The notes beneath the pieces were generated by a model that did no database searches, was not told the DNA's origin, and saw only the letters and a program-made list of their open reading frames with translations. A DNA stretch of 64,000 nt from Escherichia coli (GTDB lineage: Bacteria > Pseudomonadota > Gammaproteobacteria > Enterobacterales > Enterobacteriaceae). The position numbers and the translations under genes were made by a program. Location of the stretch: assembly GCF_030384885.1 (NCBI RefSeq), contig NZ_CP128613.1; one strand, given 5' to 3'. Positions 59,766 to 64,000 of the stretch are shown piece after piece (position 1 is the first letter of the stretch; each line of letters begins with the position of its first letter).

Positions 59766-60935
59766 ATGAAGATTAACTATCCGTTGCTGGCGCTGGCGAT
59801 TGGCGCGTTTGGTATCGGGACAACGGAGTTCTCGCCAATGGGCTTGTTGCCCGTCATTGCGCGCGGTGTGGATGTCTCGATTCCCGCTGCCGGAATGTTA
59901 ATCAGTGCCTATGCAGTTGGCGTAATGGTTGGCGCGCCGCTGATGACGCTTCTACTTTCTCATCGTGCCCGCCGCAGTGCGTTGATTTTCCTGATGGCAA
60001 TTTTCACGCTCGGCAACGTACTTTCCGCCATCGCGCCGGATTATATGACCCTGATGCTTTCACGCATTTTGACCAGCCTGAATCACGGAGCATTTTTTGG
60101 TTTGGGTTCAGTTGTGGCCGCAAGCGTGGTGCCAAAACATAAACAGGCCAGCGCAGTTGCCACTATGTTTATGGGGTTAACCCTGGCAAATATCGGTGGC
60201 GTTCCGGCAGCGACCTGGTTGGGCGAAACCATCGGCTGGCGGATGTCATTTCTGGCAACGGCGGGGCTGGGCGTGATTTCAATGGTAAGTCTGTTCTTCT
60301 CATTACCTAAAGGTGGAGCAGGGGCGCGACCTGAAGTGAAAAAAGAGCTGGCGGTATTAATGCGTCCGCAGGTGCTGTCTGCATTGCTGACGACGGTACT
60401 GGGGGCTGGTGCAATGTTTACCCTCTACACCTATATCTCTCCGGTACTGCAAAGCATTACCCACGCAACGCCGGTGTTCGTCACGGCAATGCTGGTGCTG
60501 ATTGGTGTCGGATTCTCTATCGGTAACTATCTCGGCGGCAAACTGGCAGATCGTTCAGTTAACGGCACGTTGAAAGGCTTTTTGTTGCTGCTGATGGTGA
60601 TTATGCTGGCAATCCCGTTCCTGGCCCGCAATGAGTTCGGCGCAGCTATTAGCATGGTGGTGTGGGGAGCTGCAACCTTTGCGGTCGTACCGCCGTTACA
60701 GATGCGCGTGATGCGTGTCGCCAGTGAAGCGCCTGGTCTGTCTTCATCAGTCAATATTGGTGCCTTTAATCTTGGAAATGCGCTGGGAGCAGCTGCTGGT
60801 GGTGCGGTAATTTCCGCTGGGCTGGGATACAGTTTTGTGCCGGTGATGGGGGCGATTGTCGCGGGACTGGCATTATTGCTGGTGTTTATGTCAGCCAGAA
60901 AACAACCTGAGGCAGTTTGCGTTGCCAACAGCTAA
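59766..60935 (+). CDS. ydhP: MFS transporter
   Basis: 389-aa hydrophobic ORF. Confidence 0.9.
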   Translation: MKINYPLLALAIGAFGIGTTEFSPMGLLPVIARGVDVSIPAAGMLISAYAVGVMVGAPLMTLLLSHRARRSALIFLMAIFTLGNVLSAIAPDYMTLMLSRILTSLNHGAFFGLGSVVAASVVPKHKQASAVATMFMGLTLANIGGVPAATWLGETIGWRMSFLATAGLGVISMVSLFFSLPKGGAGARPEVKKELAVLMRPQVLSALLTTVLGAGAMFTLYTYISPVLQSITHATPVFVTAMLVLIGVGFSIGNYLGGKLADRSVNGTLKGFLLLLMVIMLAIPFLARNEFGAAISMVVWGAATFAVVPPLQMRVMRVASEAPGLSSSVNIGAFNLGNALGAAAGGAVISAGLGYSFVPVMGAIVAGLALLLVFMSARKQPEAVCVANS

Positions 60936-60944
60936 TTAAACAAA

Positions 60945-60970
60945 AACGCAGAAGGATAACCTTCTGCGTT
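60945..60970. terminator. Hairpin terminator after ydhP (also positioned downstream of convergent sodB)
   Basis: aacgcagaagg-ataa-ccttctgcgtt with A-run upstream and short T context. Confidence 0.6.
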
Positions 60971-60998
60971 ACAGTTGCTGGCAACGTGCGATTTATCT

Positions 60999-61060
60999 TG
61001 CCGGATGCGGTGTTAACGCTTCATCCGAGTTGGCATGGTAAGCGAAGCGCATCAGGCAAT
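60999..61060. repeat. REP/BIME-like repetitive extragenic palindrome
   Basis: GCCGGATGCGGTGTTAACGCTTCATCCG resembles enterobacterial REP consensus, followed by an inverted partial unit (AGCGCATCAGGCAATG). Confidence 0.55.
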
Positions 61061-61080
61061 GTTGCATTTGCCATCAGTTA

Positions 61081-61662
61081 TTATGCAGCGAGATTTTTTG
61101 CTACGAATTCCCAGTTCACCAGCGCCCAGAAGTGCTCCAGATAGCCAGGACGTGCATTGCGATAGTCGATGTAATAAGCGTGTTCCCAGACATCAACGGT
61201 CAGCAGTGGAGTCGCATCGGTGGTCAGCGGAGTACCCGCGTTAGAGGTTGAAACGATAGCCAGCTTGCCATCGCTGTTTTTCACCAGCCAGGTCCAGCCA
61301 GAACCAAAGTTTTTGATCGCTGCATCAGTAAACTGAGCTTTGAAATCGGCAAAGCTGCCAAAAGATGCGGCGATAGCTTCAGCGACTTTTCCAGTCGGTT
61401 CGCCACCCGCGTTCGGTGCCAGGCAGTTCCAGTAGAAAGTATGGTTCCAGACCTGAGCTGCGTTGTTGAATACGCCACCTTCAGAGCTGCGAATAATCTC
61501 TTCCAGTGATTTACCTTCAAACGCGGTACCTTTAATCAGGTTGTTCAGGTTAGTCACATAAGTCTGATGATGCTTGCCGTAGTGATACTCGATGGTTTCC
61601 GCAGAAATGTGCGGTGCCAGAGCATCTTTAGCATATGGTAGTGCAGGTAATTCGAATGACAT
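61081..61662 (-). CDS. sodB: Iron superoxide dismutase
   Basis: 193-aa [48 protein letters not shown]..., Fe/Mn-SOD family. Confidence 0.97.
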
Positions 61663-61789
61663 TGCTACTCTCCTTTATTATTAATTTGCATACGTACAAT
61701 AGCCTTATTGTGCGTATGGATAGGGTAGCAAATTAAAAGGTGAGACAAAAGATGAACTTACCCTGTTGCCGTAACAACAGGGTAAAGTT

Positions 61790-62617
61790 TTAGCGAAGTG
61801 TTTTTGGGGTCATTACCCGGCGAGCGCCAACATAGTGGCGCTGCCAGTAGTCTTCACTGAGAGAAGTGATTTGAATTTCCTGACCCGTACGCGGTGACTG
61901 AATAAATTTGCCGTTGCCGACATACACGCCGACATGATCGGCTGTACCGCGTCCCTGAGTACGGAAGAAGACCAGGTCGCCGTTTTTCAGTTCACTACGT
62001 TCGATAGGTGCTGCATCACGCAGGTGATACATTTCATTCGCCGTACGCGGAATACGAATTTTCACCAAATCTTTATAAGCGTAATAAACCAGGCCGCTGC
62101 AATCAAAACCGGTACGCGGTGAGCTGCCACCCCAACGATATGGCTTACCAATTTGCTGCATCAGTTTATTCATTGCCACTTTTGTAGCTTTTTGCACCTT
62201 CGCTTTGTGTGCGTCGGCAAGGGTTCCTGACGCGGCATTTTTGACTTTCACACAATGCGATTTATAGCCCTTACGTTTGGTACACTTTTCGGTAAAGCTG
62301 GCTGAGGCCGTTTTATTGACGACGTGTTTGCTGCGAGTTTTGGCGTTTTTAGAAGCGGTAATGGAAGATTTTTTAACGGAAGAAGCGGTTTTGCTTTTGG
62401 TCGTACTTTTACTGGCGGCTTTTTTCGCTGTTTTCTGGCTGGCTTTCTGGGTCTTTTTGGTGGTTGCCGTACTTTTCTTTTTATCTGCTTTTTTGGTGAT
62501 ATGAGTGGTAGCAGAACTCTCCCTGGCTTGCTTTGAAGCATGGGCCATAGGCGTTAAAGGCAGGGTGGTAAAAAGTAAAGCACAGAGCGTGATCGAAATA
62601 CGGTTTATCCGCGCCAC
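61790..62617 (-). CDS. mepH: NlpC/P60-family peptidoglycan D,D-endopeptidase with K/S/T-rich low-complexity linker
   Basis: 275-aa ORF (GTG start): signal peptide, about 70-residue Lys/Ser/Thr-rich segment, C-terminal NlpC/P60 domain (GFDCSGLVYYAY...HVGVYVGNG). Confidence 0.9.
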   Translation of the reverse strand: MARINRISITLCALLFTTLPLTPMAHASKQARESSATTHITKKADKKKSTATTKKTQKASQKTAKKAASKSTTKSKTASSVKKSSITASKNAKTRSKHVVNKTASASFTEKCTKRKGYKSHCVKVKNAASGTLADAHKAKVQKATKVAMNKLMQQIGKPYRWGGSSPRTGFDCSGLVYYAYKDLVKIRIPRTANEMYHLRDAAPIERSELKNGDLVFFRTQGRGTADHVGVYVGNGKFIQSPRTGQEIQITSLSEDYWQRHYVGARRVMTPKTLR

Positions 62618-62951
62618 TGAGCGTCCCTCTGTTAAGGCAGGTCTATCATGCCTGCGTCTGATTTACAAAACTTGATGATTCTAATGCATAGAAGAAGAGA
62701 AAGTTAATAGCTTTTATTGTTAAAAAATACGTTTCGTCGGCGAGCGCAAAAAAATGCAGCAGTGGAAGCTAAAAATGGTTATAAATACGCCAGTTTGCCG
62801 TGCGTCAGGGAAGAAACGAATATTTGAAATGCAACAAATAGAACAAAGGGATAAAATAGCAAAAGCGTGATGAAAATGTTATTTTCCGATGCCGCACTGA
62901 CCCGCTACAATGTCAGATTACAGCCGTAAAGAAGTTTGAGGAAGCAAGACA

Positions 62952-63299
62952 ATGAGCACCACTATCGAAAAAATCCAACGCCAGATTGCTGAAAACCCGA
63001 TCCTGCTGTACATGAAAGGTTCACCGAAACTGCCGAGCTGCGGTTTCTCTGCCCAGGCAGTCCAGGCGCTTGCCGCATGTGGCGAACGTTTTGCCTATGT
63101 TGATATCCTGCAGAATCCGGACATTCGTGCGGAACTGCCGAAATATGCTAACTGGCCGACCTTCCCGCAACTGTGGGTTGACGGCGAGCTGGTCGGCGGT
63201 TGTGATATTGTGATCGAAATGTATCAGCGTGGCGAACTGCAGCAGCTGATCAAAGAAACTGCCGCTAAATACAAGTCTGAAGAGCCGGACGCTGAATAA
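62952..63299 (+). CDS. grxD: Monothiol glutaredoxin (Grx4)
   Basis: 115-aa ORF with CGFS active site (PSCGFSAQAV). Confidence 0.96.
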   Translation: MSTTIEKIQRQIAENPILLYMKGSPKLPSCGFSAQAVQALAACGERFAYVDILQNPDIRAELPKYANWPTFPQLWVDGELVGGCDIVIEMYQRGELQQLIKETAAKYKSEEPDAE

Positions 63300-63313
63300 T
63301 CCGTCCTGCAATA

Positions 63314-63341
63314 CTGACGGATGCGAACGGGCATCCGTCAG
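63314..63341. terminator. Bidirectional hairpin terminator between grxD and lhr
   Basis: ctgacggatgc-gaacgg-gcatccgtcag, 11-bp perfect stem. Confidence 0.7.
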
Positions 63342-63349
63342 TCCTTTCT

Positions 63350-64000
63350 CTATCCCCAATCCAGTCCTTGTGGCGAACTTGAAAATCCCGCCTCACGCAG
63401 CAGCGTAAACATCGGCGTTTGCCGGACCGGTAGGTCATTCACTTCTGTTAGCGTAAAGCGCAGCCGTGGTTCGCGACGCAGTGCGGTAGTCAGCGCGTGG
63501 AAAATCTCTGGGGCGAGTAATTCCTCTTTTTCCTGCCAGACCAGCATTTTTTTGCCACCTTGCGCCAGATAGAGTAACAATTTGCCGCCAGAAACGACCA
63601 CCAGCGCACCCGCCCGACGCGTTGGTATCAGCGTTGCCGGATGTGCAGGCCAGGGCAGAAGATTTCCCCATGCATTAGCCGGATCGTTGGCAGAGAGCGC
63701 CACTGGTGTATAGTGGCGCGTTTGCGTGGCTTGTGTCGCCAGATCGCGCAATCGGTCAATAGTCAGACGTTCAGCGAATTGCGCGCCACCCAGACCTTCT
63801 ACAAAACGACCTCGCATAATTCGCCCGGAGTCTTCCATACTTCGACAAAGCGTTTGCATCGATGGAAACCCGCCAGGGATATTTTCGGCTATCACCGCCT
63901 GACGACTGATGATGCCGTAGCGGTCGAGCATATTTTCCGCCAGCGCCAGCATCCTTTCGGTATCGTTTAGTGGCTCCACCTGCAATAACGACCAGCGTCC
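63350..64000 (-). CDS. lhr: Lhr-type large ATP-dependent helicase, C-terminal end (5' part outside window)
   Basis: reading frame open to the window edge on the minus strand; C-terminal sequence recognised as Lhr; the track's M at 63985 is a TTG inside the longer gene. Confidence 0.85.
   Translation of the reverse strand, partial: GRWSLLQVEPLNDTERMLALAENMLDRYGIISRQAVIAENIPGGFPSMQTLCRSMEDSGRIMRGRFVEGLGGAQFAERLTIDRLRDLATQATQTRHYTPVALSANDPANAWGNLLPWPAHPATLIPTRRAGALVVVSGGKLLLYLAQGGKKMLVWQEKEELLAPEIFHALTTALRREPRLRFTLTEVNDLPVRQTPMFTLLREAGFSSSPQGLDWG

Follow-up and report, generated by a model that had tools for sequence, protein, structure and literature searches.

Does the strongly basic, low-complexity tract of the endopeptidase MepH differ in length between strains of E. 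coli and, if so, how does the difference arise and what does it mean for the protein? A preliminary description of the window (the whole stretch of 64,000 nucleotides of E. coli DNA that was analysed) had named the 275-codon open reading frame at positions 61,790-62,617 as MepH, an NlpC/P60 endopeptidase, and had taken the reference protein to be slightly shorter. We found that the reading frame is real and that it lies on the minus strand, which had not been given, as do all the mepH features located below. The mepH (ydhO) coding sequence consists of 275 codons plus a stop codon, starts with GTG and corresponds to RefSeq WP_000101187.1. At 100% identity, it matches mepH of E. coli 2013C-4282 (NZ_CP027579.1), for which RefSeq gives identical coordinates, start and stop included. 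The identification proposed earlier is borne out by synteny, RefSeq annotation, the Pfam NLPC_P60 domain and a fold match. The gene order lhr-grxD-mepH-sodB-ydhP, with ydhP (+), sodB (-), grxD (+) and lhr (-), is the K-12 arrangement, the RefSeq product name is MepH, and the nucleotide identity to K-12 mepH is 97.1% when a 12-nt gap is counted. Of 5,426 complete E. coli genomes, a single one lacks the gene. By sequence inspection, a Shine-Dalgarno-like AGAGGGA (62,624-62,630) is located 6 nt upstream of the GTG. A terminator-like hairpin (61,757-61,786) directly follows the stop codon. A sigma-70 promoter-like site, TTAACT-18-TAGAAT (62,678-62,707), is a consensus match only and statistically weak (one found against 1.8 expected in shuffled sequences), and no RNA family of Rfam was found in positions 60,900-63,400.

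We then delimited the parts of the protein between which the tract is inserted. Residues 1-27 (62,537-62,617) were assigned by inspection to a signal peptide of the Sec/SPase I type, with an n-region MARINR, a hydrophobic core ISITLCALLFTTLPLTP and a c-region MAHA that carries the AxA motif and is followed by the serine at position 28. A27 and S28 are invariant in 24 MepH orthologues, and the sequence I-T-L that precedes Cys12 is not a lipobox. MepH is accordingly predicted from its sequence to be a Sec-exported soluble periplasmic protein with an SPase I signal. At the other end, the NlpC/P60 catalytic domain covers residues 157-267 (61,817-62,149) and was recovered by Pfam, AlphaFold2 (AF2), Foldseek and phmmer. 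The Pfam profile NLPC_P60 (PF00877), that of the cysteine peptidases of MEROPS family C40, matched over its positions 1-105 of 105 with 125.9 bits, for a cut-off of 23. Cys173 of the DCSG motif (62,099-62,101) and His228 (61,934-61,936) correspond in the alignment to the Cys and His of the active site of Spr/MepS (2k1g) and are kept in at least 90% of 120 homologues. The third position of the triad is Gln240 (61,898-61,900) where MepS has His; it is invariant in the 24 orthologues, and polar substitutes at this position are known in the NlpC/P60 family. Structure prediction was conducted twice, with 24 close orthologues (mean pLDDT of 47) and with 120 diverse homologues (mean of 78). In the model based on the deep alignment, pLDDT reached 96-98 over residues 141-275 and 90 for residues 131-140. 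Foldseek searches against the PDB recovered the papain-like alpha+beta fold, with target-normalised TM scores of 0.80-0.91 to 7cfl, 7v6t and 8xud.

The tract had been placed between the signal peptide and the catalytic domain. This is correct, but it does not abut the catalytic core, since two further elements intervene. The first is a beta-hairpin at residues 108-126 (62,240-62,296), seen in the orthologue alignment and in the AF2 model (pLDDT of about 70 with the deep alignment), whose two strands carry the invariant Cys112 and Cys122, a probable periplasmic disulfide. The second is a long helix at residues 133-153 (62,159-62,221), predicted with a pLDDT of 90-98 and included in the approximately 145 columns aligned to 8xud/8xup. 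Only the C-terminal 125-150 residues or so of MepH matched solved NlpC/P60 structures, MepS included, in Foldseek and phmmer searches. No PDB chain was found to cover the tract, and the matches to residues 28-130 consisted of low-complexity overlap only. Likewise, LysM, SPOR, SH3b, PG_binding_1 and OmpA-like Pfam modules were not detected in the N-terminal region at E <= 0.1.

The existence of a basic, low-complexity tract was confirmed by its composition and entropy, but its length had been given as 70 residues, whereas the peptide that had been quoted for it counts 56. This peptide is found verbatim at residues 42-97 (62,327-62,494), which we consider the core of the tract. It is composed of 34% K, 20% S, 18% T and 16% A and bears a net charge of +19. 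In its DNA, A makes up 48% of the bases and forms three runs of six and four runs of five. The 84 residues from the cleavage site to the first conserved Cys (28-111) carry a net charge of +21. We computed Shannon entropies for 15,164 50-residue windows from the 46 ORFs of the 64-kb stretch (mean of 3.81 +/- 0.17). The minimum of the tract, 2.41 bits, was the lowest among the 46 ORFs, followed by a value of 3.00 bits in a membrane protein, and none of 5,000 shuffles of MepH residues reached it. The low complexity of the tract is far beyond chance. Tandem Repeats Finder detected no array, and we rejected the possibility that the tract is a tandem repeat: it is a compositional bias. Residues 28-107 (62,297-62,536), the N-terminal region of the mature protein, contained no secondary structure or DSSP elements in either AF2 run, with a pLDDT of 49-56 from the deep alignment and 25-32 from the shallow one. 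This region is predicted to be intrinsically disordered, polycationic and of low complexity. MepH is basic elsewhere too, with net charges of +11 in the hairpin and helix region and +8 in the catalytic domain, which calls for caution in reading the tract as a tether, since its charge may not be a special adaptation. It should also be mentioned that the low-complexity (DUST) filter of BLAST masks the tract, and a 150-nt query restricted to it matched nothing in E. coli genomes.

The K-12 protein was indeed slightly shorter, as had been supposed. K-12-type mepH is 816 nt long and encodes 271 residues, compared to 828 nt and 275 residues for the allele of the window, and the difference falls inside the tract, whose length was also correctly expected to vary between strains; an alignment across strains had been proposed to establish it. 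K-12 MepH/YdhO (b1655; WP_000101193.1) occupies the same locus, and no residue of its signal peptide, Cys pair or catalytic domain differs from the protein of the window. Aligned to each other, the two alleles showed 12 SNPs, one gap of 12 nt and, at the protein level, one substitution (V99A). The segment that is present here and missing from the K-12-type allele is CCAGAAAGCCAG (62,439-62,450), which encodes QKAS at residues 57-60. Both this segment and the sequence that follows it start with CCAGAAA, and the second copy of this 7-bp direct repeat (62,432-62,438) provides a substrate for slippage. Judging from the sequence, the resulting 7 bp of junctional microhomology are the signature of a slipped-strand deletion.

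The direction of the change was determined from outgroups. E. albertii, whose protein also has 275 residues, presents NKAS at the site of the indel, a 279-residue relative presents AKAS, and Citrobacter presents NKTN or TKTS. Because the outgroups keep the four residues, the short form is the derived deletion and the long form carried by the window is ancestral. The opposite possibility, that the long form was created by a recent tandem duplication, was rejected: its two 12-nt units are identical at only 8 of 12 positions and the outgroups already possess the extra residues. The long form, with QKAS located between the CCAGAAA repeats, thus gives rise to the short form through slipped-strand deletion.

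We estimated the frequency of the two forms by means of a 221-nt query, anchored on signal-peptide sequence, that separates long and short alleles by their band of BLAST identity. The long form (at least 95% identity, insert present) was found in 1,255 + 623 = 1,878 of 5,424 complete genomes (~35%) and the short form (90-95% identity, 12-nt gap) in 3,546 of them (~65%), frequencies that rest on identity bands and not on 5,424 extracted sequences, such that single-codon indels would escape. All 59 full-length matches sampled from this search were either 221 or 209 nt long, all those sampled from a search with the full gene were either 828 or 816 nt long, and no third common length class was seen for the 5,424 complete genomes in these sampled matches. 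The difference between 275 and 271 residues is therefore a common biallelic polymorphism. One could suspect an artefact of sequencing, assembly or annotation, given that the tract is masked by DUST and yields mis-called chimeric ORFs in other assemblies. However, the approximately 1,878 long and 3,546 short alleles come from independent complete genomes and are consistent within lineages, and the long form is also carried by E. albertii and other genera. These population data refute such an artefact, to which we give practically no credence.

To what extent the short form has a single origin was addressed by comparing the haplotypes of 12 mepH alleles from annotated genomes. Among these alleles, the short form was associated with no fewer than three divergent SNP backgrounds: K-12-like, O157/O55 and ST95. 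The K-12-like short allele is three SNPs away from its nearest long allele, that of O111:NM. The short allele of FDAARGOS_1300, which is the same as in UTI89, S88, APEC O1 and IHE3034, is five SNPs away from its nearest long allele ('clone D i14') and 18 SNPs away from the K-12 short allele. The O157:H7 short allele differs by 14 SNPs from the K-12 short allele, and no long allele fewer than 13 SNPs away was found among the 12 sampled. We take UTI89, S88 and APEC O1 to be B2/ST95, K-12 to belong to phylogroup A and O157 to phylogroup E. At an identity of at least 99%, the K-12-like short allele was found in 2,972 genomes, the long allele of O26/O103/O111 on the K-12-like haplotype in 419 and the ST95-type short allele in 266. 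That the deletion occurs on three or more divergent haplotypes indicates that it arose more than once or that it was moved by very short recombination patches. Between nucleotides 112 and 294, the ST95 allele and an ST73-like allele differ only by the deletion and by one site, at which ST95 has the majority base. This comparison favours an independent origin of the ST95 deletion, the alternative that remains with 12 alleles being the transfer of a patch shorter than 183 bp (~180 bp).

The tract is prone to other rearrangements. Direct repeats of at least 7 bp within 150 bp of each other numbered 13 in its 252 nt, 10 of them with in-frame spacing, against four in the other 495 nt, a density approximately six times that of the rest of the gene. 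We identified four rare E. coli alleles in the protein database, whose DNA sequences were then compared to that of K-12. The 261-residue allele (P0010) lacks exactly the 30 bp between two copies of a 9-bp direct repeat, ACCGCTTCT, which are spaced 30 bp apart at 62,351-62,389, and has 9 bp of microhomology. The 244-, 239- and 210-residue alleles result from deletions of 81, 96 and 183 bp with microhomologies of 3, 5 and 5 bp, respectively, the last of which removes the Cys pair as well. These four deletions are all in-frame, all begin in the tract and are all private. More drastic losses were also observed in two complete genomes: a 225-bp deletion in ST2747 takes the Shine-Dalgarno sequence, the start codon, the signal peptide and half of the tract, and only the last 114 nt of mepH are left in TUM2805. 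In other strains, the A6 homopolymer at codons K82-K83 (62,369-62,374) is extended to A7, and the main frame ends after 89 residues. An alternative frame meets no stop for 97 codons across the tract, such that gene callers report a chimeric 246-residue "protein" from the A7 allele. Blocks of the assembly collection with this exact chimera numbered at least 39, and the A7 allele was found in none of the 5,426 complete genomes, where the best matches were 816-nt alleles at 99.9%. The 48% A content of the tract, its many short in-frame direct repeats and its A5-A6 runs turn it into a local hotspot of deletions and, occasionally, of frameshifts. We note that the tolerance of mepH to deletions, frameshifts and pseudogenes could reflect weak selection on the gene as a whole rather than a function that is insensitive to length.

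These observations raise the question of whether the tract is a contingency locus, phase- or length-variable, that switches MepH or changes its length adaptively. The same 12-nt deletion on at least three haplotypes, the spread of the A7 frameshift over the assembly collection and the three A6 and four A5 runs could be understood in this way. However, there is no tandem array, the runs do not exceed 6 nt and are shorter than typical phase-variable homopolymers, only two length classes were found in the matches sampled from the 5,424 complete genomes, the A7 allele is absent from complete genomes, and the alleles are stable inside clonal groups (O157, ST95 and K-12 derivatives). What would define such a locus, an array or long homopolymer and a multi-allelic length, was not found, and we regard this possibility as largely refuted and very improbable. 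The expectation of the preliminary description that tracts of this type are indel-prone is backed by the density of repeats, the four larger deletions and the 12-nt deletion on at least three haplotypes. The variation is nevertheless not open-ended, as only two length classes were seen in the sampled matches and no array was detected.

We further analyzed how the tract evolves across relatives of E. coli. In an alignment of 24 genera, indels were numerous in the tract and hardly any of its positions were conserved, in contrast to the high conservation of the catalytic domain, Cys pair and signal peptide. We surveyed length and charge in 73 enterobacterial proteins, among them one mis-called chimera and a small number of truncated alleles. 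Across these 73 proteins, length was near-constant for the stretch between the Cys pair and the catalytic motif (44-46 residues) and for the catalytic part (118 residues). Among full-length orthologues, the tract ranged from 75 to 92 residues, with 17-28% K and a net charge of +17 to +23. Homologues at 46-59% identity also possessed long, basic, low-complexity N-termini with charges of +14 to +31, some of them with AKKx-type repeats. Within E. coli, 6 polymorphic codons of the tract were nonsynonymous and 4 synonymous, versus 1 and 21 elsewhere in the mature protein, indicating relaxed constraint on the tract (Fisher p = 0.0014). These comparisons suggest that the sequence of the tract drifts freely while its charge and approximate length are kept. 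Because length and charge are kept as the sequence varies, and because distant homologues are alike in this respect, the tract most likely works by its bulk properties.

The same data can be read as evidence of a passive spacer, or of a neutral low-complexity insertion without a specific partner, whose indels are neutral noise. This would be in line with the unconserved sequence, the frequent indels between genera, the 6 to 4 ratio of polymorphic codons, the natural alleles that miss 10-61 residues of the region and the lack of an obvious phenotype of single mepH mutants (PMC11789061). Yet every full-length enterobacterial orthologue that we examined has 75-92 residues and a charge of +17 to +23, and the homologues at 46-59% identity still carry +14 to +31, although a neutral segment should decay in some lineages. 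Moreover, the large deletions are private singletons and never common alleles. We consider a passive or neutral segment of this kind to be rather unlikely, which does not apply to the 12-nt polymorphism itself, apparently neutral.

MepH is a soluble periplasmic DD-endopeptidase which, together with MepS and MepM, forms a redundantly essential set of enzymes that open peptidoglycan cross-links (PMC8996183, PMC11789061, bioRxiv 10.1101/2021.02.12.430937), and the K-12 enzyme cleaves 4-3 cross-links (bioRxiv 10.1101/2021.02.12.430937). On its own, mepH is dispensable (PMC11789061). The level of the protein is set post-transcriptionally by Prc, partly via NlpI, and by BipP (PMC8996183, PMC11789061), and the outcome of domain swaps of MepH with MepS suggests a role for parts other than the catalytic domain (PMC7516022). 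Our search of the literature for studies of the N-terminal region of MepH/YdhO found nothing relevant, and the papers above do not treat the tract. A closely related protein is the E. coli paralogue MepS (Spr; 8xud/8xup, 7v6s, 2k1g), which has the same catalytic fold (Foldseek E-value of about 1e-11, 30-35% identity). Both proteins present a disordered N-terminus followed by a helix and the catalytic domain, and both are NlpI-Prc substrates (PMC8996183). They differ in that MepS is an outer-membrane lipoprotein, whereas MepH has an SPase I signal and no lipobox, and in that the Cys-x9-Cys hairpin of MepH is missing from MepS. The disordered region of MepS is 36 residues long and includes the hydrophobic L24 and F31 (PMC11211486), in contrast to the approximately 80 residues of MepH, which are polycationic and nearly devoid of hydrophobic residues.

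The relation to MepS opens the possibility that the tract serves in regulation, as a docking or degradation element that engages NlpI or hands Prc an unstructured handle, in which case its length could tune the level or half-life of MepH. Indeed, MepH is an NlpI-Prc substrate that is stabilised by BipP (PMC8996183, PMC11789061), the disordered N-terminus of MepS, 36 residues long, is what binds NlpI (PMC11211486), and helix 133-153 of MepH overlays the helix extended by MepS in its NlpI-bound state. The contact of MepS with NlpI, however, is hydrophobic and conserved (L24, F31), and the MepH tract is almost without hydrophobic residues and unconserved even within Enterobacteriaceae; no obvious motif equivalent to L24/F31 was found in it, about 88% of the tract being K, S, T or A. 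In addition, much of the proteolysis of MepH by Prc is independent of NlpI, Prc is known to recognise C-termini, and no mapping of a MepH degron was found in the literature searched. A docking or degradation element is, in our view, unlikely, if somewhat less so than a passive or neutral segment.

A flexible tether would account for the retention of bulk properties. In the mechanism that we propose, the disordered cationic arm would concentrate a soluble hydrolase on the net-anionic sacculus or on envelope surfaces and would give reach to the catalytic domain, and the gain or loss of four residues would be functionally neutral. Several charged, compositionally biased and non-globular segments of envelope proteins act by length and charge and not by a conserved sequence, such as the low-complexity linkers of TonB (Glu-Pro/Lys-Pro) and domain II of TolA, which span the periplasm, and the cationic tails of phage endolysins. 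TonB and TolA differ from MepH in being membrane-anchored and in having Pro-rich or helical linkers, whereas MepH is soluble and its K/S/T/A-rich tract is predicted to be unstructured; no homology is implied. Binding of the tract to peptidoglycan, which had been suggested at the outset, is plausible given the conserved positive charge, against which stands that the Pfam search detected no known peptidoglycan-binding domain. The other ligands suggested at that time, teichoic-acid-like polymers, are not applicable to E. coli. Taken on its own, the idea that the disordered arm of about +20 is an electrostatic tether of MepH to the anionic sacculus or envelope is tentative, and we would put it at somewhat less than even odds. 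The explanation as a whole, namely that mepH encodes a disordered cationic tract with a 12-nt polymorphism made by slippage and that this tract may act as a flexible tether, seems to us the best account of these results, with a probability of roughly 0.6.

The locus is a known gene with a common slippage-generated polymorphism and, as such, is ordinary. A more consequential scenario is that the N-terminus is a functional module tuned by charge and length, either as a tether to the sacculus or as a handle for NlpI/Prc, and that the recurrent QKAS deletion shifts the abundance or activity of MepH. If this were true, the deletion, which is fixed in K-12-like, O157 and ST95 lineages, would make these lineages differ in the dosage of a cell-wall hydrolase, but we view this scenario as improbable. 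For annotation, our results indicate that MepH proteins of 275 and 271 residues are two normal alleles and not errors, with the caveats that DUST masks the tract and that its 97-codon alternative frame generates chimeric "proteins" in public databases. The population data also provide a small and clean example of a microhomology-mediated deletion that recurs at one site in a disordered region. Finally, the conserved charge and length of the N-terminus of MepH may bear on how soluble hydrolases find their substrate or undergo turnover.

The tract of mepH contains a run of six adenines on the minus strand (codons 82-83, window positions 62369-62374), and a natural allele in a K-12-type background carries a seventh adenine at this run (loci L005-L010), a frameshift that cuts MepH off after 89 residues. 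Gene callers report this A7 allele as a chimeric ORF of 246 aa (P0037). The assembly collection has the exact chimera in at least 39 of its blocks, whereas none of the complete RefSeq genomes carries it. An alternative frame of 97 codons on the minus strand (positions 62248-62541) is open across the whole tract, as a by-product of its A-rich low-complexity codons. This open frame accounts for the database "proteins" P0013, P0042 and P0050, whose middle reads KKQIKRKARQPPKRP...

The gene was found to be inactivated in two complete genomes. In ST2747 (NZ_CP007394.1, L004), a 225-bp deletion without microhomology takes out the Shine-Dalgarno sequence, the start codon, the signal peptide and half of the tract. 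In the 4.09-Mb genome of TUM2805 (NZ_CP128950.1, L003), only the final 114 nt of mepH are left, adjoining grxD.

Outside the tract, Gln240 (positions 61898-61900), which is unchanged across 24 MepH orthologues, aligns with the third catalytic-triad histidine of the paralogue MepS, such that MepS presents FVHAS where MepH presents FIQSP. Cys112 (62282-62284) and Cys122 (62252-62254) are invariant; a beta-hairpin is predicted to separate the tract from the helix, and each of its two opposite strands bears one of these residues. They probably form a periplasmic disulfide staple. A rare 210-aa allele found in nature (P0049) has lost the pair by deletion.

On the minus strand, some 60 nt upstream of the mepH start, there is a weak match to a sigma-70-like promoter (62678-62707), and a terminator-like hairpin of 13 pairs directly follows the stop codon, ahead of sodB (61757-61786). 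The orthologues of Salmonella enterica and S. bongori (P0056 and P0059) are annotated with an N-terminus 11 residues longer (MNRLPLTEDCS-V...). The valine that follows this extension corresponds to the GTG start of E. coli, and the extension is therefore probably an upstream start mis-call.

Our search of E. coli genomes returned one mepH-like match in a record whose type is given as plasmid, and one genome matched at two places; one genome gave no mepH match. When the DNA of the tract alone (62369-62518) was compared by megablast to 5,426 E. coli genomes, "no match" was returned because the DUST filter masks the entire query. Masking of the mepH tract by DUST is a pitfall for automated comparisons.
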